A model generated the notes under the pieces. It was given only the letters and a program-made list of their open reading frames with translations, had not been told where the DNA came from and searched no databases. From Rickettsiales bacterium (GTDB lineage Bacteria; Pseudomonadota; Alphaproteobacteria; Rs-D84), in NCBI GenBank assembly GCA_031266915.1, contig JAISAB010000001.1, positions 37,994-101,993 of the forward strand: DNA of 64,000 nt, in the 5' to 3' direction. Of the stretch, positions 5,974 through 64,000 are shown piece after piece. Numbering within the stretch: the first letter of the stretch is position 1; every line of letters starts with the position of its first letter. The position numbers and the translations under genes were made by a program.

Positions 5974-6250
5974 GTCATTGCGGGCGCAGCAAAGCAATCC
6001 AGTATAAATGGGTCTTTGGGGGCCGAATGACAGACTTCGTCTTGGAGAGACAACCCCCAAAGATAAAAACCGCGCTTAAATACAAAGGCGGTTGGAGGTT
6101 AAGAACTATCAAGTGAATAGTGCGGTGTATTCGGCAAGCCTTATTCCACCGGCCCTCCAACCGTAGTTGGAGCGTTTAACGTCAGCGCTGACGCACTTGT
6201 GGAGTTCTTAAACTCCGTGATGACAATTCGTCACCACGAAAAGTATTATA
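5974..6250. repeat. Family F ~250-bp structured dispersed element (ggcggttggaggtt ... ccctccaaccgNNggttggagcgtttaacgtcagcgctgacg)
   Basis: Three related copies (5974-6250, 37385-37560, 52411-52745) sharing gtcattgcg start, aaaaaccgcgc, ggcggttggaggtt, ccctccaacc and a gtcagcgctgac palindrome. Confidence 0.6.
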
Positions 6251-13993: not shown

Positions 13994-14000
13994 AACACTA

Positions 14001-14102
14001 GCGGATAGTCAATAGTCATTGGTCTATAGTCAATAGTTAATAAAGCCGTCGGCTTCGCCGACACATTCACTACCAACTAACGACTATAGACTACTGACTA
14101 TG
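14001..14102. repeat. Family A element with central terminator-like hairpin (gccgtcggcttcgccgac)
   Basis: atagtcaatagtcattggtctatagtcaatagtt ... aactaacgactatagactactgactat. Confidence 0.6.
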
Positions 14103-14353
14103 TAAATAACCTCTGGATTTATCTGGCAATTGCGGTATAATGTTCGTCGACAGGCGCGTTGCCTGTTATGGAATTAACAATCCATCACCAAAAGGGTCTT
14201 GAACAGACCATAAACCTTCACCCAAAAGGGGTGGAGGGCGGCGTTATAAGGCTTGCCGAAGGCGTTGCACTATACTTTTGGATAGTTTGTTAATCTCCAT
14301 CCCACCTTGATTTTTAAAGGTGGTTTTCTTTTTGAAAAAAAAAGGGGGATTCG

Positions 14354-14584
14354 ATGGGACGGCAAATCACAGATGACGAAATTCAATTCAACAAAGCGCT
14401 GGGACTGGTGATACGTGTTGCCAGAATAAAGCTTGGCGTGTCGCAAAAGATACTGGGAGAAGTCGTTGGCGTATCCCTGCAGCAGATTCAAAAGTACGAA
14501 GCCGGGGAAGACGGCGTCTCTGTCGCCCGGTTTAACAAAATGGCGACTTATCTGGAAATCCCGTTTAGAATATTTGAAAAATAG
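14354..14584 (+). CDS. XRE-family helix-turn-helix transcriptional regulator
   Basis: 76 aa; LGVSQKILGEVVGVSLQQIQKYEAG is an HTH_3 signature. Confidence 0.6.
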   Translation: MGRQITDDEIQFNKALGLVIRVARIKLGVSQKILGEVVGVSLQQIQKYEAGEDGVSVARFNKMATYLEIPFRIFEK

Positions 14585-14692
14585 CGATCAGCAAACATCA
14601 AATATGCGTTTATTTAAGATTTATGATTTACGGATTTAAGATTTAGTTCAAGTGACAGGAATATATCTTTTTGGTCCCAAAACCTCAAGACT

Positions 14693-14765
14693 CGTCATTC
14701 CCGCTTGGACCACCCACGAAAAACAGTCGTTTTTCGCGGGGCCTGGTGGCGGGAATCCAATGTAT
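14693..14765. repeat. Family H 68-bp hairpin element
   Basis: cccgcttggaccacccacgaaaaacagtcgtttttcgcggggcctggtggcgggaa; near-identical copy, reverse-complemented, at 28086-28152. Confidence 0.7.
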
Positions 14766-15238
14766 TCAAGCTGTGAACAATGCCCGTATGATGAATACAT
14801 TGGATACCGGCCTTCGCCGGGGCTAAAGGCACCCGAGGTGACAATTTTTATTGTCATCGCTTCGCGATGCTTTACGTACCTGCGCTAGGCGTGACAAAAG
14901 TTTGTTTTAATTTAAGGCACATCCCTGTCGGTTGAGCGATAAACTATACGCTATCTGCCATATGCTATTTTTTCCTATTTTTCCATTGTGCTGAAAATTC
15001 GCACGCGCTATAGTTGTCTTGTCGACGGGTGTTCCGTCGATGGGGTCTGATAACCCTTTATTGTGCGTCGTGAATAATCACCGCGCTTTTGCGCCGTTTT
15101 TATTTCGACGAAAAACAACTCCTGACTCGGTCAGGAGGGCGCGATATATCTGAATAAGCGCGCAATTCACAATATTGTTATCAGCCTCCTGACCGCCTAT
15201 TTTCGGCGGTTTTTACTTAACTGCAACAGGAGGATATT

Positions 15239-15460
15239 ATGGGGAAAATTTTGCTGCTTTTGATAATCGCCGCTTTCGCGTCCATTGGCTCGTCGCCATC
15301 GCATGCGGTACAATCATACCAAAGTATAGCGGCATGCACCAATGCGGGCGGGGTGGTTTATGACGGCTGCATGTGCAAGGTCGCAAAAACCACCACGAAC
15401 TACGGCGTCATAACCACCAGCACGGAATGCGGTACCATAGCCGGTCTGGCCTGCATCTAA
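15239..15460 (+). CDS. Small cysteine-rich secreted protein
   Basis: Signal peptide MGKILLLLIIAAFASIGSSPSHA; six Cys in 50 residues; RBS AGGAGG. Confidence 0.4.
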   Translation: MGKILLLLIIAAFASIGSSPSHAVQSYQSIAACTNAGGVVYDGCMCKVAKTTTNYGVITTSTECGTIAGLACI

Positions 15461-15473
15461 AAAAGGATTAAAA

Positions 15474-15857
15474 ATGTCTAGATTTGTCTCTGTTTTTTCC
15501 GGGCTGTCGTTGCTGTCTGGGGCGGCGGCCAGCGCGCCGCCGCCGACTTCGCTTGGCGACGAATGCGACACGAAATCATATACCTGCGCGAACGGATATT
15601 ACGGCACGCCGACCGATAGTTCTACCGGATGTACGCTATGCCCCGAGCACGCTACATGCGCCGGCACGGGCAACACAACATTCATATGTATTTCAGGATA
15701 TTATAAAATTGGCGCCACGTGTGCGCCCTGCCCCGATGGCGGCACATCAATTGCGGGCGCGCGGGCGATAACCGATTGTTATCTGCCCACTGGAACATCA
15801 TTTGAAGATGCGTACGGAACTTTTGAATTGACCGACAAGTGTTATTATAGCAATTAA
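15474..15857 (+). CDS. Cysteine-rich secreted protein (eukaryote-like CxxCP / GYY repeats)
   Basis: Signal peptide; CTLCPEHATCAGTGNTTFICISGYYKIGATCAPCPDGG; followed by a terminator. Confidence 0.5.
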   Translation: MSRFVSVFSGLSLLSGAAASAPPPTSLGDECDTKSYTCANGYYGTPTDSSTGCTLCPEHATCAGTGNTTFICISGYYKIGATCAPCPDGGTSIAGARAITDCYLPTGTSFEDAYGTFELTDKCYYSN

Positions 15858-15884
15858 AAAACCGGCAAAAAAGCCGGTTTTTTA
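15858..15884 (+). terminator. Rho-independent terminator
   Basis: accggcaaaaaagccggt hairpin followed by tttttt. Confidence 0.6.
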
Positions 15885-15887
15885 ATA

Positions 15888-15982
15888 AATAGTCGTTAGT
15901 CTATAGTCATTAGTGAATAGTGCTTAGTTTATAGTGCATAGTTAATAGTTCACTAATCACTATGCACTATTCACTAGTGATT
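15888..15982. repeat. Family A element
   Basis: atagtcgttagtctatagtcattagtgaatagtgcttagtttatagtgcatag...cactattcactagtgat. Confidence 0.55.
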
Positions 15983-16029
15983 AAAAAAACCATCATCCCC
16001 CAAGTTTTTGTAACGCTGACGCTAACAAA

Positions 16030-16330
16030 AACTTTCCCCCTTTATCAAGGGGGACAAGTGCTAAACCAAGGGGTAAAAGAGCTGAGCCAAATGGGATAAG
16101 TGCCAAACCGAGGGGGGAAAAGAGCTGAACAAATTGGATAAGAGCCGAATCAAGGAAGACAAGTGCCAAGTTTTGTGCCAGTGCGCTGTTCTGGGCTGTT
16201 GCCCCTTTCATTTCACGCTTGTTCCCAGCAACCTGGCGCCAGCCACTCTTGTTTCATACTTGTTCCTAGAACTTGGCGCTGGCCCCTCTTGTTAAAGAGG
16301 GGTGAAAATCTTGGCAACTTGTTGCCATAG
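16030..16330. repeat. Degenerate ~38-nt tandem units (acaagtgctaaaccaagggg...) followed by an inverted counterpart
   Basis: Three tandem units around 16045-16170, then cttgttcc...cttggcgctggcccctcttgtt on the other arm; non-coding. Confidence 0.4.
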
Positions 16331-16344
16331 ATTTTCGGGGAGAT

Positions 16345-16470
16345 TAATAGTTAGTCAACAGTCATTGGTCTATAGTCAGTAGTGTATAGCAAATAGCACA
16401 TACAATTAGGTGGTTATTTCAGATTTATGATTTAAGATATAAGATTTAGGCGACATTAAATCTTAAATTT
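16345..16470. repeat. Family A unit followed by family I gatttatgatttaagat repeats
   Basis: tagtcaacagtcattggtctatagtcagtagtg; agatttatgatttaagatataagatttag...taaatcttaaattt. Confidence 0.5.
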
Positions 16471-16537
16471 TCCATTTGCTATTTGATATTTGCTAATTGA
16501 TATTTAAAAAAAGCCGGCCTTTTTGACGATTTTTGCA

Positions 16538-36191: not shown

Positions 36192-36935
36192 ATGAAAATA
36201 ACATTGACGCCTGAAATTTATTTTACAAAAGTGCCGCCTACGCTGGATATGAACGTGCGCAGCGAATTGTACAGCACCAACGAATTCACTTTCGCAGTGG
36301 CGGTCATCCTGTCGGCCCAGGCCACGGATAAAAAGGTGAACGAAGTCACGCCCGCGCTATTCGCCGAAGCCCCGACGCCCGAAGCGATGCTGATATTGGG
36401 CGAGGACGGCCTGAAAAAACATATCAAGGTTATATCTTTTTTTAACAACAAGGCGAAAAATATTATCGGACTGGCGCAAATGCTTGTCTCCCCCCTCTTG
36501 GGGGGGAATACCCGCGGAGCGGGGGAGGGGGAGCTCCCCCCAGTCTCGCTCCGCGAGACAGCCCCCCTCAAAGAGGGGGGCACATGGCGCTTTCCGGACG
36601 AATATCATAACCAGCGGGCGCTGATGGCGCTGCCCGGAATCGGGCAAAAGACCGCCAACGTCGTCATGAACGTCTTATGGGGCGCGCCGATGATTGGCGT
36701 GGACACGCATGTTTTCCGCAATGCGCATCGCTACGGATGGGTCGGCGCATCCGACGACACGCCCGAAAAGGTCGAGGCGAAACTGCTGAAACTGATTCCG
36801 AAAAAATACCACGCGATGGTCAACCACGTGATGGTCCTGCACGGGCGTTATACCTGCAAGGCATTGCGACCGCGATGCGCGGACTGCCCAGTTGCGCAAT
36901 GGTGCAACGCGCCTGACAAGAATCTGCCGATATAA
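36192..36935 (+). CDS. nth: Endonuclease III (Nth) with ~100-bp in-frame G/C-rich palindromic insertion
   Basis: HhH motif LPGIGQKTANVVMNVLWG and FeS cluster C-x6-C-x2-C-x5-C at the C-terminus; insertion at 36486-36585. Confidence 0.8.
   Translation: MKITLTPEIYFTKVPPTLDMNVRSELYSTNEFTFAVAVILSAQATDKKVNEVTPALFAEAPTPEAMLILGEDGLKKHIKVISFFNNKAKNIIGLAQMLVSPLLGGNTRGAGEGELPPVSLRETAPLKEGGTWRFPDEYHNQRALMALPGIGQKTANVVMNVLWGAPMIGVDTHVFRNAHRYGWVGASDDTPEKVEAKLLKLIPKKYHAMVNHVMVLHGRYTCKALRPRCADCPVAQWCNAPDKNLPI
36486..36585. repeat. Family J G/C-rich palindromic element (gtctcccccctcttggggggg ... cccccctcaaagaggggggcac) inside nth
   Basis: Related cccccctcttgggggg segment at 52490-52512. Confidence 0.6.
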
Positions 36936-36941
36936 TTCAAT

Positions 36942-36974
36942 ATCGAATTACGAGTCACGAATTACGAATCTCGA
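36942..36974. repeat. Family C cgaattacgagtcacgaattacgaatc repeat
   Basis: Copies at 2586, 37604, 41862, 45208, 50491, 52951; usually next to terminator hairpins. Confidence 0.55.
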
Positions 36975-36975
36975 A

Positions 36976-37003
36976 AAAACCGGCCGCGGCCGGTTTTTTT
37001 TAC
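36976..37003. terminator. Bidirectional terminator (aaccggccgcggccggtt with flanking A/T runs)
   Basis: Serves nth on + and the small genes on -. Confidence 0.55.
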
Positions 37004-37071
37004 CCGACCATATATCCGCATATAAATATCGCAACCGCGGCGATAGCGAATACAAACATTTTTGCTTTCAT
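37000..37071 (-). CDS. 23-aa hydrophobic micropeptide MKAKMFVFAIAAVAIFICGYMVG
   Basis: Perfect SD TAAGGAGG 9 nt upstream of the ATG, overlapping the stop of the upstream gene; followed by a terminator. Confidence 0.4.
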   Translation of the reverse strand: MKAKMFVFAIAAVAIFICGYMVG

Positions 37072-37089
37072 GATTTTTTTTCCTCCTTA

Positions 37090-37368
37090 TTACCAGCCGC
37101 CTTTTAGCTTTTCGGCGCACCCAACCGATTCGCTGCCCATCAAGAAACTGATGCCGATACCGATTGCAAACAGCAGCGCGAATCCGACCAGCATTGGGAT
37201 GCCTTTGGATTTCAGGGTTTCCATAACGGTCGTTTTCCCGTCCGTCGTAATCAGCCCCCACGCCATGTTGGCCAGGACGAATCCCGCGCCGACAAACGCC
37301 AGAACGCGCAGCGTCTGGAATACACCCTGCATCGAGTCTATAAGATTGCATAATCCTGATTCGTTCAT
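37090..37368 (-). CDS. Two-TM small membrane protein, possibly VirB2/TrbC-like pilin
   Basis: 92 aa from Met 37368 (GGAGG SD); LIDSMQGVFQTLRVLAFVGAGFVLANMAWG resembles the VirB2 core (NNICTFILGPFGQSLAVLGIVAIGISWMFG); a second hydrophobic helix follows. Confidence 0.4.
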   Translation of the reverse strand: MNESGLCNLIDSMQGVFQTLRVLAFVGAGFVLANMAWGLITTDGKTTVMETLKSKGIPMLVGFALLFAIGIGISFLMGSESVGCAEKLKGGW

Positions 37369-37384
37369 TTCAAACCTCCGTGTT

Positions 37385-37560
37385 TTACGAACAAAAAAAC
37401 CGCGCAATTGTGTGGCGGTTGGAGGTTCATGACAATTTTTGGGAATTGTGCCGCTTATTCAATATATTCGCAGGCCCTCCAACCGACGGTTGGAGTTTTT
37501 CGTCGAAACACCGACGCCCAAAACAGAGGTCATGACACCCCATCGCAGGAACACCCCGCG
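37385..37560. repeat. Family F structured element (short copy)
   Basis: aaaaaccgcgc...ggcggttggaggtt...ccctccaaccgacggttggag. Confidence 0.55.
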
Positions 37561-37633
37561 ACAAACTGATTATATCAGAATATAAGACAATTACAAATAA
37601 AATATCGAATCACGAGTCACGAATTACGAATCA

Positions 37634-50490: not shown

Positions 50491-50549
50491 TTACGAGTCA
50501 CGAGTTACGAATCACGAAAAAAACCGGTCTTTTTGCCGGCTTTTTAATT
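50491..50549. repeat. Family C repeat plus weak hairpin/T-run
   Basis: cttacgagtcacgagttacgaatcacgaaaaaaaccggtctttttgccggcttttt. Confidence 0.4.
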
Positions 50550-52410: not shown

Positions 52411-52745
52411 GTCATTGCGAGGGGCGTCAGCCCCGCGGCAATCCAGTAAAACAAATTCGTGCGCCCAATGGGCGCACTCTCTTTTTTTCTCCCCCCTCTT
52501 GGGGGGCAAATGCAAAATAATCACAAATTAGGTCTTTTGGGGTCGAATGACACACTTATATCTTGGAGAGAAATAACAACCCCCAAAGGTAAAAACCGCG
52601 CTTTGCAAATTAAAGGCGGTTGGAGGTTAGTTACTACTATATAGAATAGTGCGGTGTTTTTGGACAAGTCCTTATGGCACCGACCCTCCAACCGATGGTT
52701 GGAGCGGTTTAACGTCAGCGCTGACGCTATATAGAAGGGTAACTA
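52411..52745. repeat. Family F structured element (long copy, with nested cccccctcttgggggg segment)
   Basis: gtcattgcg...ggtcttttggggtcgaatgacac...aaaaaccgcgctttgcaaattaaaggcggttggaggtt...ccctccaaccgatggttggagcggtttaacgtcagcgctgacgc. Confidence 0.6.
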
Positions 52746-52880
52746 CACCCCCGTCGCCGGACGAGTATATCATCCGCCGACCTAGGTATTATACACGAAT
52801 ATATTTGAAAAATCTACAAATTAAAAAATTAATGTTTCTTTTATGCCGGTATGACGCCAAATGAGAAGAATGTCGAAAAA

Positions 52881-52945: not shown

Positions 52946-53532
52946 AATATTTCGGATTACGATTCACGAAAAAAATCGCGCCCGTTGGGCGCGATACTTT
53001 AAATACAAGGGATTCCCATCTTCATGGGAATTTCCTTACTTTTTCTTAAAACCCTGTTTCGCCTTGAATTTGGGATTGTCTGGGTCAATAAGAATAACTT
53101 GTTTGCCGCGGCGAATCTGTTTTACATTGCCGCGCTTTTTCCAAGCCTTCAAAGAACTTAAGAACTTCATGTCATATTCCTTTTTGCCATGCGATTATAA
53201 CCGCTTTTTATAAGAAATCAACCAAAACTTCTAATAATAGTTTAATATTCGCTATACATTCAACCGTTATATGAAATTTCAATTTCTTATTAATATATTG
53301 TTGTTGTTTTTATACAGGTTAAAATTGTTAAAAACGCTTTTAATTTTTTTATCAACTGATTTTCAACAAAAAAAGCCGGTGTTTTCGCGCCTGTTTATAA
53401 AAATGTTAAAAAATATCGCCGGTAATCAACAGTTGAAAAACATATAAGTTTCCGGCTTTTTCAACAAATTTTTCAGATTTGTTTTTATGCTTGTTGAAAA
53501 ATGTTGAAATTGTTATAATTAACCCGTACCGA

Positions 53533-53844
53533 ATGGAGACGAGAGAATTGCGGCAACAAGTCCTGAAAGCTTTGGCGAACCCATCGCGCATATTTTATGT
53601 GCCCTATACGCTGGCGGTTTTAAATTTCGTGCTGCAGTTTCTGGTATTCATCGTCATTTTCATAGGCGGTCTGATAATTTCCGGCGGCGGCGTGGGAATA
53701 AACCCTCTGGCGTTTTTAATATCCGTGATGGCGGTTCATTCGATTTTGGCCGGCTTTTCCAAACGAGAGCCTCAGCTGGCGCAGATTATCGCGGCCAAAT
53801 TGCGCCTATTTAAATCGCGCGCCCCGAACAAGTTGACGGCATGA
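53533..53844 (+). CDS. virB3: Type IV secretion system protein VirB3-like
   Basis: ~104 aa; IFYVPYTLAVLNFVLQFLVFIVIF ... VMAVHSILAGFSKREPQLAQI fits the VirB3 pattern; immediately upstream of virB4. Confidence 0.6.
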   Translation: METRELRQQVLKALANPSRIFYVPYTLAVLNFVLQFLVFIVIFIGGLIISGGGVGINPLAFLISVMAVHSILAGFSKREPQLAQIIAAKLRLFKSRAPNKLTA

Positions 53845-53845
53845 T

Positions 53846-56254
53846 ATGAATCAATTCTTGGAATATTTTATCACTGGGGGATTTTCGATGACATCGGTCA
53901 TTCTGGCCATGGCCGTCGTTTTCGTGTTCATTATCCTGATGTTGTACGTTCCTACAATCGCGCTGTGGATTTTCCCAAAGTTCGGATACAAGAAATATTC
54001 TCAATACCTGCCGTTCGCGACGGTGTTCACGGACAATTCGATTCAGCTGACCGACGGGTCCTTGATAAGGGCTTATAAAATCGACGGTGTTCAAACCAGC
54101 ATGCAGGACGAGAAAACCCGCAACCAATTCCTGGATTTGCGCGCACAGCTGTTCAACCAAATCAACGACCCCGGCGTTACCCTGCGCTTTTACACAATTC
54201 GCGATTTCGCGGCCGATAAGACTGATTACGAATTCGACGGGCCGACGCTGCAGAAAATTTACGACAAGTGGAACAGCCAGGGGTTGAAGATTTTCACGAA
54301 CAGCTATTATGTGGTTCTGTCGGTTGGCGGGTCGAACGCCAGAGAAAAGCTGAACCAGTACGGCAACTATATCGAATCCATACTGGCCGCGTACGGACCC
54401 AGCGTTCTGGACAACGCGCGCCCGGAAAATATGGCGAAATTGTTCGCCCGAATCCTATCGCCGATCACCAAGCCGCGGCCTGCACGGTGCGACCAAAGAA
54501 TCGCGGAAACAATAACCGTCGACGATGTGGAATTTCTGGGCAACGGACTGATCCGGTATTCCAGCGGCGCCAAAAAATCGTACGCCGCGACCGTATCGTT
54601 CAAGGTGTCCCCGGATTATCTGGACGAGGAATTCTTCAACACCGTGTCCACCATCCAATGCGAGATGATAACCATGAACGGATTCCGCATTATGGGCGCG
54701 GCCGATATAGGCAACGTCATCCGCCAACGGCGCGCCACGTCCGATAATAACGACGACGCGGCCGAGGAACAAATCCGCGACGCGCAATCCGCGATGGACG
54801 AGAACGCGGCCGGCACGCAGACGCTGCTGAACTATTACCCGCTGTTCGTTCTGTTCGGCGACACGGTCGAATCTCTGCAGGACGGCGTCGACGAATTCAA
54901 AAAGATTTCGGCGGCTTTCGGCATATCGCCGGTTGTGGAAAACTTTGCGTCCAAGGTTTCGTGGTTCTCGCAGATTCCTGGATTCGACGTGTTTCCGCGC
55001 AGTTTCAAAATGCTGTCGAAAACAGCCGCGGTCAGCATACCAATGTCATCGACGCCCAAAGGCGTCGCGAATTCAGACTGGGGTCCGGGCCCGCTGGTCG
55101 TATTTCCGACAGCCCAGGGAACGCCGTATATGTTCCAATTCCACGTATCCGCCGCGCCCGCGGCCGTGGGCCATACGCTGACGGTCGGCCCGACGGGCGG
55201 CGGAAAAACGACGCTGTTCTCGTTCCTGATAGCGCAATCGCTGCGACATCCGAAATTAAAGGCTTTCTTTTTCGACCGGAACAAGGGCGCCGAAATCTTC
55301 ACGCTGTCGGTCGGCGGAAAATACGTGACCATGCAGAACAAGGAAAAATCCGCCGGCATGGGATTCGAGGCGCATTTGAATCCACTGAAGATGGAGGACA
55401 GTGTCGCCAACCGCGCGTTCCTGCGCCGATGGCTCGCGATGATTTCGGGGCAGTCCGACACGCGTTCCGCGGACGAAATCGCACGCGCGGTATCCGTCAA
55501 TTTCGATTACTTGGGCGACAAGGACCGGATGTTGAAAAGCCTATGGGAAAGCTGCTTTTCGTCCGAGGGCAATATGCGCGGCGCGCTGAAAAAATGGGTC
55601 GACCCGCTGCAATACGGCGAAATATTCAATGAAACCGCCGATACGCTGGATTTGCAGTCGCGTCTGACCACGTTCGATTTTACCGAAATTCTGCAGGACC
55701 AGACATTGTCGCCGGCCGTGATTTCATACATCCTGCACCGGATAAACAACACGACCGTGTCGGGCGGAAATCCGTCGCTGATTATGATTGACGAAACGGC
55801 GCCGATGCTGGAAAACAAGATGTTCCGCGACAACTTTATCGTCGGCCTGCAAGAGGGCCGCAAAAACCGCCAGGCCTATATGGTGGCCTTTCAGCGCGCG
55901 AACGTGCTGGACAAGCTGGGTATCGGCGACGTGGTGCGCGGCCAGGCGCAGACGGTTTTATTCTTCCGCAATCCGGCGGCCGACGCGAACGATTACCAGT
56001 ACTGGAATCTCAATCCCTTGGAAATGGCGTTCATCCAGGGCAAGGCTTATCCGAACCTGAAGCGCGCGGTGCTGCTCTCGCGCCCGGTAAATGGCGAATC
56101 AGTGATTCTGAATACGGAGCTCGGCGGATTGGGCAGTTTGCTGCGCCTGTTCGAATCCGGCCGCTCCAGCGTGCTTTTGGCCGAAGAGCTGTACAGGCAG
56201 TACGGGAATAATTTCGTCGGCGAATACTTGCGCAAACAGGGCGCGGTGGAATAA
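53846..56254 (+). CDS. virB4: Type IV secretion system ATPase VirB4
   Basis: 802 aa; Walker A TVGPTGGGKTTLFSFL; Walker B LIMIDETAPML; N-terminal TM region. Confidence 0.9.
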   Translation: MNQFLEYFITGGFSMTSVILAMAVVFVFIILMLYVPTIALWIFPKFGYKKYSQYLPFATVFTDNSIQLTDGSLIRAYKIDGVQTSMQDEKTRNQFLDLRAQLFNQINDPGVTLRFYTIRDFAADKTDYEFDGPTLQKIYDKWNSQGLKIFTNSYYVVLSVGGSNAREKLNQYGNYIESILAAYGPSVLDNARPENMAKLFARILSPITKPRPARCDQRIAETITVDDVEFLGNGLIRYSSGAKKSYAATVSFKVSPDYLDEEFFNTVSTIQCEMITMNGFRIMGAADIGNVIRQRRATSDNNDDAAEEQIRDAQSAMDENAAGTQTLLNYYPLFVLFGDTVESLQDGVDEFKKISAAFGISPVVENFASKVSWFSQIPGFDVFPRSFKMLSKTAAVSIPMSSTPKGVANSDWGPGPLVVFPTAQGTPYMFQFHVSAAPAAVGHTLTVGPTGGGKTTLFSFLIAQSLRHPKLKAFFFDRNKGAEIFTLSVGGKYVTMQNKEKSAGMGFEAHLNPLKMEDSVANRAFLRRWLAMISGQSDTRSADEIARAVSVNFDYLGDKDRMLKSLWESCFSSEGNMRGALKKWVDPLQYGEIFNETADTLDLQSRLTTFDFTEILQDQTLSPAVISYILHRINNTTVSGGNPSLIMIDETAPMLENKMFRDNFIVGLQEGRKNRQAYMVAFQRANVLDKLGIGDVVRGQAQTVLFFRNPAADANDYQYWNLNPLEMAFIQGKAYPNLKRAVLLSRPVNGESVILNTELGGLGSLLRLFESGRSSVLLAEELYRQYGNNFVGEYLRKQGAVE

Positions 56255-57061: not shown

Positions 57062-60061
57062 TTATCCAATTTCTTTCATTATGTTATCGGTTTCCAACAA
57101 GATAGCGATTATCTTTTGGTAGTGAATAACGTCTTCAAATGACAATGTGCGGCCACGGCGGTCTTTCAACCACTTTTGCGCCGGCTGATAGCCGCCGATA
57201 AAAAATTCCCATGCAGTATCCGGCACATTATCAAAATATTGGGTTTTGTTTATATAAACTCGGTTGCCATCTCGTACAACCTTTTCAACAGTGTCATCTC
57301 CGGATATAGGATAGGTACAGGTTGTCGCGGGGACAAATTCCATCAGGTGCAGCTTTCGCAGGCGTTCGCCCAGTTTTGCCAGTCGTTCAAATTCTTTGAC
57401 ATCTTTCGGATATGGAATCTTTGGAAAATCTATTTTTAGAAATTCACGATATTTTTCCCGATATGACGGACTGTGCAGCACCGCATAAATATAATCAAAT
57501 ATTTCAACAGCATCTGCATCACGCCCGATGGATTTAGATATTTGATTTACTATACGCTGGTCCAAGTTTGATTCCGGCCGTTCGCCAAAGTATGTATATA
57601 ACGGAAATATAACATATGAAGCAAAAGGCTGAGATGATATTTCAGATAATTTGTCAGTTATAAAAGATATAAAATGTTTTTTAGCGCCAAATTGACGAGT
57701 CGCTATTAAAGCAATGTTTGGCTTTAACATATGTTGCATGACGCTATATCTGTGTCTGACAACTTTATCCAAATCATAATTTATCCATCTGGTATCAAAT
57801 GGTCTGTAAGAAATTTTTTGGTTAAACTTGGTATCAAATGCATTAAAAGAAATCAATTCAGAATCATTATGTGTTTTTATACCGGTCGTGTTTATTTGAA
57901 ACAAATCTGTCAAAGAAAACCCATTATCATACACGTTTCTTTCTGATAAGTCTTTGTCCACAAAAAAGCAATACGGTTCAATCGGTTTTAGCTCTTTATA
58001 TTTTGTTGAGTCTAAATCATTCTTGCTTAAAAAGTCGTATTTCTCATTGCGTTTTCCATAAATATCATTATAAAAAACCTTGCCTAGAGTTTTCTTTTTA
58101 TCCAATGTTTTTATAAATATATTGATGGACACACCCTGCATAATATCAAACACGTTTTCATCCTTGCCGCCGTCCGGTATGGTTTCGCCAATATTTGAAT
58201 TCCCGTGTAAATTTAATATATAAATTTTATCGAATGTTTCCATCAGCGATTTGCGCATCTGACGATGTATCACGCCGTCAAGAAAACTATTGTTTGTGAT
58301 AAACGCCAGTATTCCGGAACCGTTCTTTTCTATAAAGTTCTGACCCAGCGCAATAAACTTTATATAATCATCCGAAAGCGGCTGAATATTTCTCTCGTTT
58401 AAGTCTTCTTTGTATTTTTTAATCAAATGCTTGGCATAATCGTTATTGTTCGAGCTGCTGACGCTATACGGCGGATTTCCTATCACGCACATCACCGGAG
58501 TATCTTGTTTGATAGTATTCGCCTCGCGCGCTTCGTTGGACAGCCACTGGGCAAAGAAAAGCGTCTGTGTGTTCGGGTCGGCTTCTTCAAGGCTGTTGGT
58601 CAGATATACCCCCAAGCGTTGAGTTGAGTTTTTTATCACGGCATTCTTGCCGATATCGGCCAATTTATTATCAAACAAATCATCTTGCCGGAACATCTTT
58701 TCATTAATTGGCGCATCGTCCTGAATATATCCGGTTTCGCGTAATACCAAGTCTAACTTCAAATGTGCCATGGCATAACTGGCCATCAATAATTCAAACC
58801 CATGAATGCGCGGCAACAAATGCTCATCAACGTACTTTGTCCAAAGCCCGGTATTGTTTTCAAAACTCTTGTGTATAAAGCGAATTGTTTCGGCCAAAAA
58901 AGTTCCGGTTCCGGTCGCGGGGTCAAGAACCTGAACGCGATGAAATTCTTTGTCTATCGGCTTATTCGTGCCTTGGGTGTTTGTCTTCTTGATAATTTTT
59001 GAATTATCGGCCAATCCCAAAGGCAATTCAAAGTCTGTCTTTAATATATTGTCAACCGCGCGGACTATATAATCAACCACAGGTTGCGGGGTATAGAAAA
59101 CGCCACGGCTTTTCCGCAAAGCCGGATTGTATTCAGCAAGGAACGTCTCATAGAAATGTATAATAGGGTCGCTTGTTTTTGTCTTGCGTCCAAAGTCGCG
59201 CATAATATCCGCAACATCTGTGTACGAGAAAATCTCGGCAAGGTTATCAACCACCAAAACAATTCGTTCATCTATTTCCGTGCCGGCGATATATCCGAAT
59301 AAATTACGCAAAAATGGATTTGTTTTCGGTATAAGGCTTGCGGCTTCAACGCGTGTAAAAGTGCTTAGCGACTTATCATGTAAACGAGCCGCAAACATTC
59401 CATAGGCTATAGTTTGCGCATACACGTCGGCAAATTCGCTGGTGGTTATATCATGTATCAGCATTTCTTGGAAGACTGTCATTTGCTCGCGCAGTGATGA
59501 ATTACTCTTACCGTCTTTTTCCAAAGCCTCATTGATAACGTTGGCAACCAGTTTTGCTTTGCCGGCCATCAATTCGGCCAGTCTTGACGCAGATTTAATG
59601 GTTGTGGTTTTCTTGATATAAAAATCACGTAGCAAATTTTCCAAGAAATCATAGTGTTCTGGTATCGGCGTAATTGTTTTGCTGTCAAAATCGGCAATTC
59701 TTACGCGTTTAAAAACAATGCCGCTTTTATAAAAGATAAAATCAAAGTAATCCGTATAAATTAAATTATCAAATCCGTTGCGATAGCGTTCCAACTGGTC
59801 TTTTTCATACCCGTGCAGGTTATCAAGGCGAGACACGCCGATACCTTTAGTTTCAATATATCCAACAGCAACGTCTTTAAGTTTTATTACGAAATCCGGT
59901 GCACCGAAAGTCCCGCGAGTCGGCTCGTTTATAGCAATTATGTCCGGGTTTAAAGATTCCAGCAATTTCTTCAGATGCGGACGATATGTATGTTCATTCG
60001 CTTCGCCTGTTTTCCATTCCCGTTCAATCGCAGAGATATAGTTTGTAAATAACTGTGACAT
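57062..60061 (-). CDS. Type IIG restriction-modification enzyme (MmeI-like: N-terminal PD-ExK nuclease fused to N6-adenine methyltransferase and TRD)
   Basis: 999 aa; PDFVIKL...GYIETKGIG aligns with MmeI D..WPGILLIEMKSRG; FYTPQPVVDYIV resembles AHYTSE; GNPPY catalytic motif; AT-rich. Confidence 0.75.
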   Translation of the reverse strand: MSQLFTNYISAIEREWKTGEANEHTYRPHLKKLLESLNPDIIAINEPTRGTFGAPDFVIKLKDVAVGYIETKGIGVSRLDNLHGYEKDQLERYRNGFDNLIYTDYFDFIFYKSGIVFKRVRIADFDSKTITPIPEHYDFLENLLRDFYIKKTTTIKSASRLAELMAGKAKLVANVINEALEKDGKSNSSLREQMTVFQEMLIHDITTSEFADVYAQTIAYGMFAARLHDKSLSTFTRVEAASLIPKTNPFLRNLFGYIAGTEIDERIVLVVDNLAEIFSYTDVADIMRDFGRKTKTSDPIIHFYETFLAEYNPALRKSRGVFYTPQPVVDYIVRAVDNILKTDFELPLGLADNSKIIKKTNTQGTNKPIDKEFHRVQVLDPATGTGTFLAETIRFIHKSFENNTGLWTKYVDEHLLPRIHGFELLMASYAMAHLKLDLVLRETGYIQDDAPINEKMFRQDDLFDNKLADIGKNAVIKNSTQRLGVYLTNSLEEADPNTQTLFFAQWLSNEAREANTIKQDTPVMCVIGNPPYSVSSSNNNDYAKHLIKKYKEDLNERNIQPLSDDYIKFIALGQNFIEKNGSGILAFITNNSFLDGVIHRQMRKSLMETFDKIYILNLHGNSNIGETIPDGGKDENVFDIMQGVSINIFIKTLDKKKTLGKVFYNDIYGKRNEKYDFLSKNDLDSTKYKELKPIEPYCFFVDKDLSERNVYDNGFSLTDLFQINTTGIKTHNDSELISFNAFDTKFNQKISYRPFDTRWINYDLDKVVRHRYSVMQHMLKPNIALIATRQFGAKKHFISFITDKLSEISSQPFASYVIFPLYTYFGERPESNLDQRIVNQISKSIGRDADAVEIFDYIYAVLHSPSYREKYREFLKIDFPKIPYPKDVKEFERLAKLGERLRKLHLMEFVPATTCTYPISGDDTVEKVVRDGNRVYINKTQYFDNVPDTAWEFFIGGYQPAQKWLKDRRGRTLSFEDVIHYQKIIAILLETDNIMKEIG

Positions 60062-60848
60062 TCTTGCGTCCTATTTTATATTATTCCTAGTATAGCACTA
60101 ATAAATGGCATAAAACAAGTTTTTATAGGGTTTAAAGAATATCAGATTTTTCGCTTATCATCTTTTTTTGCGGAATTAAAGGCGTGTCAGACTATTGTTG
60201 CCGCGATATAATCCGGCGATGTAAACATTTCTAGATGCCATCTGGAACGAAAGTGCAAAAATGAGTTTTCCATAAAGCATAATTTTGAAGTGGATGCAGA
60301 GCCATCAATCAACGAACTAAACGAATCCAAAGGCCTTTTTAAAGCATTGGAAGATTATAAAATAAAAGTATCTAAAGATAACCCAGTTTTTTTAGTATCC
60401 TGCGCTTGAATTTGCAAAATTAAAAAACTCTCTATAATTACATAGAACTAAATTTGGTTGTTCGCAATAGACAAAGTTCTAACCAACCATGTGTACGAGT
60501 TGGTAGATTTTATAAACCAGTAAAATCCCTTTCGGGAACTGTTATCTATCGAGCACAATGAACTAATATCTATAGCCACCAGAAACCGTAATTAATAGCA
60601 ATAATCTACCTCAAACATCCAATTTTTACCCAAACCTTGATAATAACACCAATTTTCACTCCCAAGGCTTTCAGACCTTTTGTTTCGTTTATAACCTATT
60701 AATATTTCTTAGTAATCTTAAATAACAATTGATTTTATGCAGATTGTAGGATATTGTAAAATTAATAAAGCGCGGTGGCAAATAACCAAAATTGGTAGCA
60801 AAAAGCACCCGTGGTAGCAAATAGGTAGAAAAAAAATGAAAAGGTAAT

Positions 60849-61646
60849 GTGTCAGAAAAGGCAATGAAAATGGAATATAAATTAAAAAATAGATATAAGG
60901 CCGATTTAGAAAAACAACTAAATAGATTATGTTGTCATACCATGGAGGCGGTGGTTGATTTAGAGATGTTTTTTTATCCTTTGCGAGATCCCAGCGTACA
61001 TAATGATAGCTTTGCATTTAAACATTCTTTAGATATATTTTTTGAGAGAGCTCTCTTGTCTATAAGAAAGCTCGTAGAGCCGTCACAGAAAAATGACAAA
61101 GCAACTTTGAATTCAATAGGCAAGATAATCTTGCAGCCTGATTTTTACTTGATCCCAGATGAGGATTCAGATTGGACAGATGTTTTAAGAACAGTGGGAA
61201 GAGCAGAAGAAGTTATAGACCTTGCACAAAGGCATGCAGAGAAGTTTTTTCAAAAAAACTATGGGGATGCATTGCAAAAATTATCCAAAAATATTATGGC
61301 CTTTTTAAACTCAGAACAAGCGTTGCGAATAAAAGACTATAGAGATTATTCTTGTCACATATTATTGAACAAGCCAAAAAGCGTTTCATTTGAAATTTAT
61401 GATAATATGTCCAATACTCTAAACAAAACAGTCGATTTTTTATCAAGATTACATGATTTTGTCTTTGATGAAAAAGCAGACTTCTTTAAACAAATAGCCA
61501 TTTTAGCCCCCGTGCTTGCTGAAAATTACTGGAAAACCATCAACGAAGGGGCAAAATTGGTTGAAAATAAAAAACAAGAAAGAGAAACCTTAGCAGAGAT
61601 TTTAAAGAGAGCATCTAATAATTCTGGGGTAAGAAATAACCAATAA
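60849..61646 (+). CDS. Hypothetical island protein with candidate HEPN-type Rx4H motif (RDYSCH)
   Basis: 265 aa, predicted all-helical; preceded by TGGYAGCAAA direct repeats at 60770-60830; no family confidently recognised. Confidence 0.4.
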   Translation: MSEKAMKMEYKLKNRYKADLEKQLNRLCCHTMEAVVDLEMFFYPLRDPSVHNDSFAFKHSLDIFFERALLSIRKLVEPSQKNDKATLNSIGKIILQPDFYLIPDEDSDWTDVLRTVGRAEEVIDLAQRHAEKFFQKNYGDALQKLSKNIMAFLNSEQALRIKDYRDYSCHILLNKPKSVSFEIYDNMSNTLNKTVDFLSRLHDFVFDEKADFFKQIAILAPVLAENYWKTINEGAKLVENKKQERETLAEILKRASNNSGVRNNQ

Positions 61647-61668
61647 AATCAACTTTACCGAACGTGTA

Positions 61669-62803
61669 TTGGAAAATATGCCAGTTCCGACTGATAAACA
61701 GACTGTATATTACGACAGTGGCAGTAAAGATGGCCTGTGTGTCATCGTGACATATGGTGGGGCAAAGACTTATTATGCTTACATGAAGTTCCAAGGTGTC
61801 CCAAAACGTATCAAAATTGGTCGTATGGGACAAATTAAACTGATCAAAGCACGCGAAATTGCACATAGCCTTAAAGAACATCAACCCTTGGCTAAGATCC
61901 CAGCGCAAAGCGTAAAGAAGATTTAAAAGACATAACATTAAAGCAGTTTTACGAAACGGCTTATAAACCGGAGTATTCTTTGTTGTACAAAAAGTCGGGG
62001 TCAGTGGCAAATGATGACAGTTTGTTTAATCACAGGCTGAAAGATTTTTAAAACAGGCGGTTATTAAGCATAAAATCGGAGGAGATTGAAAAACTACATA
62101 ATAAAACAAAGAAAGAGTTATCTCCATACACAGCAAATCGCGTTTTGTCATTGATAAAACATGTTTATGTAATTGCTATAAAGCACGGCCACATCCGCAG
62201 AGATGCAAATCCGGCAGAATTAATCCGTAAATTTCCAGAGGCTAGCCGCGATCGATTCTTAAAATCAGATGAAATGAAACGATTTTTTGATGCGCTTACG
62301 GTCGAAGATAACCCAGTGTTTAAAAACTATATATTATTGTCGTTGTTTACAGGTCAACGCCGCAATAATGTGTTGACGATGCGCTGGGATAACATAGACC
62401 TTAAGAATGTTTTATTTACTTTCCTGACTCCAAGAATGGCGAACCGCCGCAAGTTCCCATGACAACACAGGTAAAAGAACTGCTGGGATCAATGGAACAC
62501 GATTCTGACAGCGAATGGGTATTGCCAAGCAAAAAGTCCGCTAGCGGACACCTTGAAGACCCAAAACGTCCATGGCAAGATCTGTTGGCGCGCGCCGGTA
62601 TAGAAAACCTGCGCCTACATGATTTACGGCGCACACAGGGCAGCTATCAGGCTATTACTGGTTCCAGCTTACATATCATCGGAAAGTCCCTAGGACATAA
62701 ATCGCCCAGCGCAACAGAGTTGTATTCTAGACTAACCACCGATCCAATCCGCGAATCTATGCAACGCGCTACTGATAAAATGTTAGAGTTTACGGAAGGC
62801 TAA
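61669..62803 (+). pseudogene. Frameshifted/interrupted P4-type tyrosine integrase
   Basis: Three collinear fragments: N-terminal arm-binding (DUF4102-like, 61669-61926), core-binding (62145-62462), catalytic (62459-62803; HDLRRT ... ELYSRL). The 61927-62144 gap translates as integrase in another frame. Confidence 0.7.
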
Positions 62804-63010
62804 CAATTATTAAGGCAGGCTATATTATGTATTAAATTACTCGAAGTAGTTGATATCTGATAAGAAGATGATAAACTTCATGCAAAAATGAAGGAATGGC
62901 AAATGGCAGTTCGTATTGATATAAATAATAACAGCGAGGCTTTGGACTATGATTTAAGGAAGTATTTTCAATCTGGTAAGCTCAACTTTCTAATTGGATA
63001 AGGCGCATCT

Positions 63011-63967
63011 ATGCCGGCCATATCAGCAGGTGGCAATATAGAAAATGAATTAAAAGAGTTGGCAAGCGACCCTGAGCAGAGCAATGAATACGAGAAAAAA
63101 CTCTATGGATTTTTGGCTGGGGTTCAGAAAGCCCAAAACGATATTATAGCGGGAAGTTTTATTGATGGCGCAGGAGCAAACAATACGGGTAATACGCTAT
63201 CAAATTATGAGAAATTTATAACTACCATCGTATCACTTTTACTGGCCAGGAATAACCCTATCATTCTAAAGCGAATGAACATATTTTCGACAAATTATGA
63301 TATGTTTATTGAGAAGGCTGTTGAAGAAGTTTCGCCACTACATGTAAATGACGGTTTTGTTGGGAGTTGTAGAATTGATGCGAAATTTCCATTCTCGACG
63401 CACACATTTTCTAATTGTATGCATAATGCCGGAGATTATTACAAAACATATATACCGACAATCAACATAATAAAATTACACGGTTCATTGTCATGGCAAT
63501 CGAATGAGGTGGGTAAAATTTTCTTTGGTAATAATTCGTTACCAGAACTTTCGAATGATGACATTAATGATTTAGACACATTGAAAGAACGTAATAAAAA
63601 GTACAGCAATATAATTATTCCAACTTTGAAAAAATTTGAAGATACTGTCCTTATGCAAACATATTACGATTTACTACGGATATATTCAAACGAGCTAGAT
63701 AAAGAGAATAGCGTTATGTTTGTATTTGGTTTTTCATTCAATGATGAACGCATTTTAGAGATCACAAAACGGGCATTAAAAAACACTACTCTTGAAGTCA
63801 TCATCTTTGCTTATGGCGCTGCTGAAGTTGCAGATTTTGAAAGAAAGTTTACTGGGTTTCAAAATGTGAAAATTGTTTATGATTCAGCAAATGATGCAAA
63901 TATTAGTTTTGAGCGGTTGAACTCAATCTTTTCAGATATAAAACCAGCAGAAGGCCAAGATGTCTAA
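63011..63967 (+). CDS. SIR2-like (SIR2_2 family) protein, probable NAD+-depleting defense effector
   Basis: 318 aa; DGAGAN, IFSTNYDMFIE, IIKLHGSLSW, FVFGFSFNDERI match ThsA/DSR-type SIR2 motifs (GAGxS, TTNYD..LE, KLHGS, hFIGYSxxD). Confidence 0.65.
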   Translation: MPAISAGGNIENELKELASDPEQSNEYEKKLYGFLAGVQKAQNDIIAGSFIDGAGANNTGNTLSNYEKFITTIVSLLLARNNPIILKRMNIFSTNYDMFIEKAVEEVSPLHVNDGFVGSCRIDAKFPFSTHTFSNCMHNAGDYYKTYIPTINIIKLHGSLSWQSNEVGKIFFGNNSLPELSNDDINDLDTLKERNKKYSNIIIPTLKKFEDTVLMQTYYDLLRIYSNELDKENSVMFVFGFSFNDERILEITKRALKNTTLEVIIFAYGAAEVADFERKFTGFQNVKIVYDSANDANISFERLNSIFSDIKPAEGQDV

Positions 63968-64000
63968 TTTGGAAAAAATTGTTCAGCAAAACACAATCCT
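63960..64000 (+). CDS. Partial gene (MSNLEKIVQQNTI...) overlapping the SIR2 stop by 8 nt; truncated by the window edge
   Basis: ATG at 63960 in the +1 frame relative to the SIR2 stop; translational coupling implied. Confidence 0.3.
   Translation, partial: MSNLEKIVQQNTI

Follow-up and report, generated by a model that had tools for sequence, protein, structure and literature searches.

We analyzed a window of 64 kb of DNA from a Rickettsiales bacterium (contig JAISAB010000001.1) and focused on two small open reading frames (ORFs), ORF-A and ORF-B, which together with their signals lie on the minus strand. ORF-A spans 37090..37368, with its ATG at 37368..37366 and its TAA stop, included in the span, at 37092..37090. 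It encodes a protein of 92 aa, MNESGLCNLIDSMQGVFQTLRVLAFVGAGFVLANMAWGLITTDGKTTVMETLKSKGIPMLVGFALLFAIGIGISFLMGSESVGCAEKLKGGW (MNESGLC...KLKGGW), whose last residue is Trp and whose hydropathy profile has two transmembrane (TM) cores, at residues ~19-40 and ~54-80. A Shine-Dalgarno (SD) sequence, GGAGG (37375..37379, minus strand), is located 6 nt 5' of the ATG. ORF-A terminates in a tandem TAA-TAA, and the second, in-frame TAA (37089..37087) opens the sequence TAAGGAGG (37082..37089), which directly follows the true stop and joins this second stop to the SD of ORF-B. The micropeptide gene, ORF-B, occupies 37000..37071 (ATG 37071..37069, stop 37002..37000); its ATG lies 10 nt after the GGAGG, and its 23-aa product, MKAKMFVFAIAAVAIFICGYMVG, has a basic N-terminus, one TM helix and a conserved C-terminal CGYM[IVLM] motif, with a hydropathy above 2 across the peptide, which is essentially one TM helix. 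The stop codon of ORF-B overlaps the T-run of an intrinsic terminator, A6-CCGGCCGCGGCCGG-T8 (36974..37001), detected on the plus strand and common to both strands, that is, to the ORF-B operon and the convergent gene nth; it is bidirectional because its A and T runs are symmetric. On the other side, a copy of a repeat of ~150 nt that we call element F (37393..37542, minus strand) precedes ORF-A, and a sigma-70-like promoter match, TTGTAA-16-TATAAT with TG (37569..37596, minus strand; a match to the consensus only), lies 5' of both the element and the operon. The two ORFs are flanked by ileS and nth on one side and by pheT-pheS on the other, downstream of pheST. The best explanation of this arrangement is that ORF-A and ORF-B form one small operon ending at the bidirectional terminator. 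An earlier note on this DNA had described the 92-aa two-TM ORF with its GGAGG, the SD-driven 23-aa hydrophobic micropeptide, the bidirectional terminator behind it and the repeat element immediately upstream, and all of these are present as described. It had also placed the stop codon of ORF-A inside the SD of the micropeptide; the SD was correctly recognized, but the true stop is not part of it, since the true TAA abuts TAAGGAGG.

From the comparative evidence, we are practically certain that the micropeptide gene is real and new to annotation. Orthologs of ORF-B were found directly 3' of the ORF-A orthologs in the related loci L004, L003 and L002, where they encode MRKKLMMFIIAAVAIFACGYMVG, MKITKEHMVFVIMVIAILACGYMIAQ and MKITDKRKKLIVYCIAIALVMLCGYMIGQ, respectively. 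A six-frame regular-expression scan for CGYM[IVLM] followed by zero to four residues and a stop gave 21 matches in 1.04 Mb (57 loci plus the window) and 2 further matches in another 1.2 Mb, and all 23 matches in these 2.26 Mb of related DNA lie directly downstream of an ORF-A ortholog on the same strand. Across 18 distinct loci, pairwise comparison of the four CGYM codons yielded 208 synonymous and 0 non-synonymous differences, and the entropy of these codons was highest at the third position (1.32), followed by the first (0.87) and the second (0.48). In every orthologous locus, the two genes are separated by a gap of 12-26 nt that contains a purine-rich SD; the length of the micropeptide varies between 23 and 31 aa. 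The pairing is kept in ~20 other genomes. In a neighbor-joining tree of mature ORF-A proteins, all 16 micropeptide-bearing tips, the window included, fall into one clade, as compared with none of the 41 other tips, and the micropeptide is kept in every member of this clade, inside which ORF-A identity drops to 40%. The earlier note had anticipated conservation next to paralogs; it was found next to orthologs, and the 64-kb window holds no paralog of ORF-A or ORF-B. That the micropeptide escaped annotation was also borne out, as a collection of ~15 billion proteins contained only one of eight versions, and that one without a name. Taken at the level of sequence comparison, these results show that ORF-A and ORF-B are real, under purifying selection and strictly linked in one clade. 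We also considered whether the micropeptide is a signal peptide split off from ORF-A, or a tandem copy of ORF-A that was truncated. This idea was ruled out because of the purifying selection on the peptide and because relatives that have their own leader (L004, L003 and L002) also have the micropeptide. Whatever its function, ORF-B is a clean case in which comparative genomics alone was enough to prove a conserved micropeptide gene in a bacterium.

The ORF-A protein belongs to a small family. An identical protein is annotated as 'hypothetical protein' in 'MAG: Rickettsiales bacterium'. A profile search of 1.84 billion representatives recovered only 79 relatives (representatives at 50% identity), and a word-indexed search recovered 684 clusters at 90% identity. 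In GTDB species genomes, a scan located 57 ORF-A loci, all of them in gut-associated alphaproteobacterial metagenome-assembled genomes: Candidatus (Ca.) Enterousia, RUG and RGIG rumen and hindgut bins, UBA3635/3760 and termite 'Rickettsiales' bins. Every locus that carries a genus name is assigned to Ca. Enterousia, which has been placed in the order Rs-D84, whose genomes are smaller than 1 Mb and whose members are predicted to depend on partner cells (PMC12306168). The window organism is a member of order Rs-D84 related to Ca. Enterousia; it bears the NCBI label 'Rickettsiales bacterium', yet it is no classical rickettsia. Across genomes, the neighbors of the ORF-A gene are always housekeeping genes, either pheT/nth/ileS or, in Enterousia, fbaA/copG/tolB.

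Most members of the family have 115-125 aa and begin with a signal peptide that ends in AxA (MKNYAKVLVFAAIVALVVVPAQA). The window protein has none: it begins 6 residues before the first conserved Cys, with the GGAGG directly upstream and no hydrophobic in-frame extension. Leaderless versions with an in-frame stop just upstream are represented by the window protein, P0007, L048 (9998-10276) and L019 (1069-1365) and are spread over three or more separate branches of the family, which implies a signal-peptide-independent insertion into the membrane. Nearly invariant positions include Cys7, Cys84, several Gly, Phe and Trp residues and a near-terminal Trp. The pattern of two helices joined by a short basic loop is kept in 67 relatives; in the window protein, the interhelix loop, TTDGKTTVMETLKSKG, contains three Lys. 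The AlphaFold2 model of ORF-A is a helical hairpin with helices at residues 3-41 and 48-78 and a predicted local distance difference test (pLDDT) score of 72. The lack of a signal peptide in the window protein and the two nearly invariant Cys go beyond what the earlier note had reported, as does the contrast between the micropeptide of one clade and the upstream lipoprotein of its sister clade, which is described below.

The earlier note had also read ORF-A as a VirB2-like pilin belonging to a scattered type IV secretion system (T4SS). The relevant hidden Markov model (HMM) is PF04956 (TrbC/VirB2 pilin), with a profile length of 98 and a Pfam gathering score of 27.9 bits. When 27 ORF-A relatives were scanned singly, eight matched PF04956 with 21-27.1 bits; the best of them reached 24.8-27.1 bits and an E of 5e-6 at best, over profile positions 10-90 of 98. 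It was the only recurrent family-specific model in the relatives, the others being scattered TM families at E > 0.01, and three ORF-A clusters bear a precomputed PF04956 label. The resemblance extends to architecture, since VirB2/TrbC pilins have ~90-120 aa and most ORF-A relatives share with them the signal peptide, the two helices and the basic loop. In addition, the genome that carries ORF-A carries virB3 and virB4. On the other hand, the two nearly invariant Cys and the C-terminal Trp of the ORF-A family are not features of the Pfam family.

T4SS genes are present in the window. A virB3 homolog (53479..53844, plus strand; PF05101, 25.6 bits for a cut-off of 23.9; PRK13899, E 1.6e-4), whose true start is likely the internal ATG of METRELRQQ, is followed by a homolog of the virB4 ATPase gene (53846..56254, plus strand; PF03135, E 4.9e-14; TIGR00929, E 2.5e-112). 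Both are located 16 kb from ORF-A on the opposite strand, and no VirB2-like ORF was found ahead of virB3 in the window. The virB4 gene is conserved and native to the lineage, because its G+C content is core-like (core genes, 0.55-0.57) and at least 139 gut and rumen metagenome contigs encode a VirB4 with 65-82% identity. The virB3-virB4 pair is a conserved T4SS remnant or system of order Rs-D84; a metabolic survey of the order (PMC12306168) mentions no secretion system, and a full-text literature search for Rs-D84 together with 'type IV secretion' returned no paper. In the window, virB4 is followed by a gene for a 228-aa protein without Pfam or NCBIfam match; in L072 it is followed by one for a 209-aa protein without Pfam match and then by DUF374, LpxK and LpxC. 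Separately, 6 kb 3' of virB4 in L072 (18346-21047), there are genes for a T2SSE ATPase and a T2SSF platform protein, of type II secretion or type IV pilus-like kind.

The layout of these genes recalls the rvh 'archipelago' of Rickettsia, in which, according to passages of PMC2653234, virB2 stands alone in islet B and virB3-virB4a-virB6 make up islet A. As in that reduced alphaproteobacterial genome, T4SS genes are scattered among housekeeping genes, and the pilin candidate is solitary with virB3-virB4 elsewhere; this is a likeness of layout. Unlike Rickettsia as portrayed in those passages, the window organism belongs to another order (Rs-D84, gut-associated) and has no virB6 genes after its virB4. 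The passages of the same paper on RvhB2, VirB2 and cysteine describe no micropeptide partner of RvhB2/VirB2. In two related loci, L143 and L088, the order is pheT, pilin-like gene, micropeptide, ychF (minus strand), sufBD-like genes, virB3 and virB4, which equals the window order after one inversion. A scattered T4SS, as the earlier note proposed, is plausible in view of a virB3-virB4 pair 16 kb away that has no adjacent virB2, but the identity of ORF-A as its pilin is not established.

Several results weigh against a pilin. The window protein itself had no match to PF04956 at E <= 10, so that the HMM check suggested by the earlier note came out negative for it, and none of the relatives, at 21-27.1 bits, attained the gathering score of 27.9; single-sequence scans of ORF-A and ORF-B against Pfam and NCBIfam assigned no family to either. 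An alignment of the ORF-A family with a VirB2 profile by hhalign was not significant (E 0.2, probability 0.3%), and hmmsearch between the two in both directions gave at most 7 bits; this profile was built from 120 bona fide VirB2 proteins, all of the Agrobacterium/Rhizobium type (Rhizobiales), a narrow set that makes the negative a weak one. The same non-significant alignment puts the segment from the N-terminal Cys through the first TM helix roughly in register with VirB2. Searches of PDB sequences with the ORF-A protein and two profiles found no solved pilin, fold searches did not discriminate among helical hairpins, and a tblastn search of plasmids with relative P0230 gave no match. We know of no leaderless forms among characterized VirB2/TrbC/TraA pilins. 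Gene linkage points in the same direction: in none of the 57 genomes does virB3 or virB4 lie within 10 kb of the ORF-A ortholog, and an ORF-A ortholog occurs within 3 kb of virB4 in only 2 of the 80 virB4 loci compared (L069-L148), namely L143 and L088, a frequency near that expected by chance in a genome of 0.9 Mb. The typical order of such genes is virB2-virB3-virB4; the ORF-A gene never adjoins virB3. Finally, virB6 and virB8-11 were not seen beside virB4, so a complete T4SS is not shown. By sequence, membership of ORF-A in PF04956 is not established; resemblance of architecture and borderline similarity remain. On this sub-threshold similarity and the genomic context, we consider the assignment of ORF-A as a T4SS pilin reasonable, and we lean toward it.

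These same results can be read in another way, in which ORF-A would not be a T4SS pilin at all; it would be a lineage-specific small envelope or membrane protein with a housekeeping-type role, the micropeptide would be its accessory subunit, and the TrbC matches would reflect two-TM composition. This reading accommodates the fact that every pilin HMM match stays under the curated cut-off, the negative hhalign, hmmsearch and PDB searches, the constant position among housekeeping genes without any association with virB genes beyond the chance rate, and the recurrence of leaderless variants. However, it leaves aside that PF04956 is the sole recurrent family, with near-full-length coverage and E values down to 5e-6, that the conserved virB3-virB4 pair has no other VirB2 candidate beside it, and that Rickettsia as a rule has its virB2 alone in an islet, as stated in passages of PMC2653234. 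We regard a non-pilin ORF-A as a serious competitor, albeit one on the unlikely side.

The clade without the micropeptide has a different gene close to ORF-A. In these genomes, a gene for a lipoprotein of ~120 aa lies ~200 nt upstream of the ORF-A ortholog on the same strand, as in L063 (9437-9796), L066 (1170-1556) and at least 30 other loci (L011, L014, L016, L018, L021 and others). The example MKKVLVSVFALAALAAC|SSYDYYKGG... has a canonical lipobox, a YDYY motif and several conserved Cys, and Pfam assigned no family to this protein. Of 69 ORF-A gene copies, a tally in which redundant contigs from one genome enter individually, 36 are preceded by the lipoprotein gene and 19 are followed by the micropeptide gene; the two never occur together. 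The remaining 14 were scored as lacking both, although they include two frameshifted copies that actually keep the micropeptide (L026 and L061) and one cut at a contig end. The window, and the 10 kb around each micropeptide-bearing locus, were free of lipoprotein homologs. This distribution suggests, without proving it, that ORF-A proteins commonly act together with a small partner anchored in the membrane and that one exchange of this partner took place.

The lipoprotein also served as a control for the nature of the micropeptide. In the lipoprotein, which comes from the same lineage, the lipobox reads L-[AGSV]-[GA]-C, and the residue before the Cys is G or A in 35 of 35 sequences. In the micropeptides of 20 species, the residue at this position is A in 10, I in 4, V in 2 and L in 4; in the window the sequence at the Cys is I-F-I-C, which departs from the canonical lipobox [LVI][ASTVI][GAS]-C. 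Because the -1 residue varies in the micropeptide, as opposed to 35 of 35 G or A in the control, we conclude that the micropeptide is not selected for a canonical lipobox. Moreover, after the basic N-terminus the hydrophobic stretch continues unbroken through the Cys to the C-terminus, and the 5-7 residues that follow the Cys do not amount to a mature domain of the kind that binds VirB9. Judged by these sequence features, the micropeptide is most likely a single-pass membrane peptide with N-in/C-out orientation and a periplasm-proximal Cys-Gly-Tyr-Met end, and not a lipoprotein.

As an alternative, ORF-B could encode a mini-lipoprotein, processed at the Cys by Lgt and LspA into a lipidated peptide of 6-8 residues (CGYMVG), which would act as a VirB7-like anchor or replace the lipoprotein of the sister clade. 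The basic n-region, the hydrophobic h-region and the invariant Cys are what such a peptide would have, and 10 of the 20 species show a good lipobox, I-L-A-C. It is also in keeping with this idea that the canonical lipoprotein of the sister clade (36 of 69 copies) never occurs alongside the micropeptide and that its mature N-terminus, C-x-x-Y-Y-D-Y-Y, is faintly like C-G-Y-M. Likewise, T4SS lipoproteins of the VirB7 type are small, have a signal-peptide-like N-terminus and a conserved Cys, and are encoded with T4SS-type genes. However, in the other 10 species, the window (with I) among them, the -1 residue is I, V or L and breaks the [GAS]-C rule that the true lipoprotein of the lineage obeys throughout; unlike VirB7-type proteins, the micropeptide has a non-canonical lipobox in half of the species and a mature part of 5-7 residues, too short for the VirB9-binding region of VirB7, and, as in a plain TM helix, its hydrophobic stretch does not end at the Cys but extends to the C-terminus. 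We consider lipidation of the micropeptide improbable. The remaining possibility, that ORF-B is a chance ORF or a decaying, functionless remnant (the signal-peptide stub left by a tandem paralog or a lipoprotein after truncation), might be entertained because the ORF is very short, signal-peptide-like, unannotated and not found in two thirds of the family loci, but it is effectively refuted by conservation: the motif never varies (208 synonymous against 0 non-synonymous differences), a six-frame reading of 2.26 Mb places it at a single position only, and the peptide persists throughout a clade in which its partner falls to 40% identity, with its SD conserved in every locus.

A single-pass micropeptide of this kind fits the class of operon-encoded accessory peptides, which have fewer than 50 aa and one TM helix and are co-operonic and co-conserved with a membrane-protein partner. 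KdpF, CydX and AcrZ are operon-encoded accessory micropeptides of membrane complexes. The product of ORF-B is like them in its size of less than 50 aa, its one TM helix, its position in the operon of a presumed membrane partner and its being of a kind routinely missed by annotation; it is unlike them in that the presumed partner, ORF-A, itself has only ~90 aa. The nearest precedent in function comes from the F-pilin TraA, a T4SS pilin with two helices, which is bound and stabilized by the bitopic inner-membrane protein TraQ (PMC7555446). TraQ, our working analogy for the micropeptide, is small, crosses the inner membrane once in N-in/C-out orientation and is dedicated to this pilin (PMC7555446). 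The analogy is one of function: TraQ has 94 aa and a polar periplasmic tail and is not encoded beside traA, whereas the micropeptide has 23-31 aa, possesses little beyond its TM helix and has a translational link to its partner. By analogy we thus propose, rather than report, a TraQ-type role for the micropeptide.

In the model that we propose, ORF-A would be a helix-loop-helix protein of the inner membrane with its N- and C-termini in the periplasm and its basic loop in the cytoplasm. It would represent a very divergent VirB2/TrbC-type pilin of a scattered, vertically inherited T4SS, with virB3-virB4 located 16 kb off. Cys7, just before the first TM helix, and Cys84, just after the second, would then both face the periplasm and may form a disulfide that joins the two ends and possibly substitutes for the head-to-tail cyclization of P-type pilins. 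ORF-B would be translated from its own SD abutting the ORF-A stop and inserted with its basic N-terminus inside and its CGYM end at the periplasmic face of the membrane. There it would most likely pack against the two helices of ORF-A as a stabilizing or assembly cofactor, similar to TraQ. We give about even chances to the overall proposal that the micropeptide is a single-helix membrane cofactor of a divergent, possibly disulfide-stapled pilin. A broader scenario for Rs-D84, in which a scattered T4SS uses a disulfide-stapled pilin, leaderless in some species, that needs a membrane cofactor, and in which the micropeptide replaced the ~120-aa lipoprotein in one clade, is doubtful as a whole and is put forward tentatively. 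If the proposal is true, the missing pilin of a conserved T4SS would have been found in a widespread, uncultured, genome-reduced gut lineage, together with a new kind of pilin accessory, a micropeptide missed by standard annotation, and the leaderless and two-cysteine variants would widen the definition of a VirB2-like pilin. If the broader scenario is true as well, the cofactor would represent a new class of pilin-biogenesis factor and provide a handle on how Rs-D84 organisms contact their hosts.

The repeat upstream of ORF-A, which we take to be the 'family F' element of the earlier note, is one of five copies in the window; the other four are at 52589-52752 (minus strand), 6063-6217 (minus), 15041-15216 (plus) and 14169-14330 (plus). 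Eight copies were found in related loci, including L004 (9825-9976), L007 (9741-9888 and 19073-19252), L023, L020, L050 and L056. The copy at 37393..37542 has a promoter-like site ahead of it and its own terminator 25 nt before the ORF-A ATG. The element is characterized by a conserved CUCCAACC/GGUUGGAGGG hairpin, a AACCUCCAACCGCC segment and a terminal terminator hairpin. In a six-helix model, 96.8% of the cells were paired, versus ~45% when the partners were slid, and compensatory changes were seen in 21 of 36 pairs in an alignment fitted to the model; RNAalifold on an independent MAFFT alignment of five sequences gave 12 compensated pairs. Rfam has no family for this element. We tested the idea that it acts as a riboswitch or attenuator leader of the pilin gene and rejected it as a general rule. 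A copy upstream of the pilin-like gene occurs in only three genomes, its position outside the window being conserved only in L004 and L007, and other copies face convergent genes; for these reasons, we interpret element F as a dispersed structured element or small RNA and not as a dedicated leader. It could be a novel small-RNA family or a mobile element similar to the Rickettsia palindromic elements (RPEs). Its exposed CCUCC motifs resemble anti-Shine-Dalgarno sequences. Two of the window copies lie in a 2.5-kb region between macB-like and parB genes (13994-16537) that contains no ORF of at least 150 aa.

Other features of the window were also recorded. Directly after virB4 and the gene for the 228-aa protein, a region of low G+C content (57062-64000; 0.33-0.41 compared with ~0.55) is clearly foreign; it encodes a Type ISP restriction-modification enzyme (57062-60061, minus strand) and a SIR2-like protein (63011-63967), and it is probably an acquired defense island. 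Within nth (36192-36935, endonuclease III), a G/C-rich palindromic stretch with runs of C6 and G7 (36484-36590) lies in frame; it recalls the RPEs inserted in coding sequences, and a 25-nt match to it is found at 52485-52509, beside a copy of element F. Lastly, runs of a 7-nt repeat (CGAATTA, CGAGTCA or CGAATCA) are present on the plus strand at 36951-36969, 37606-37631, 50494-50519 and 2586-2611, with 7 matches compared with 0.02 expected. Three of these four sites are intergenic and adjoin intrinsic terminators, and the fourth, 2586-2611, is located within the mutS ORF.

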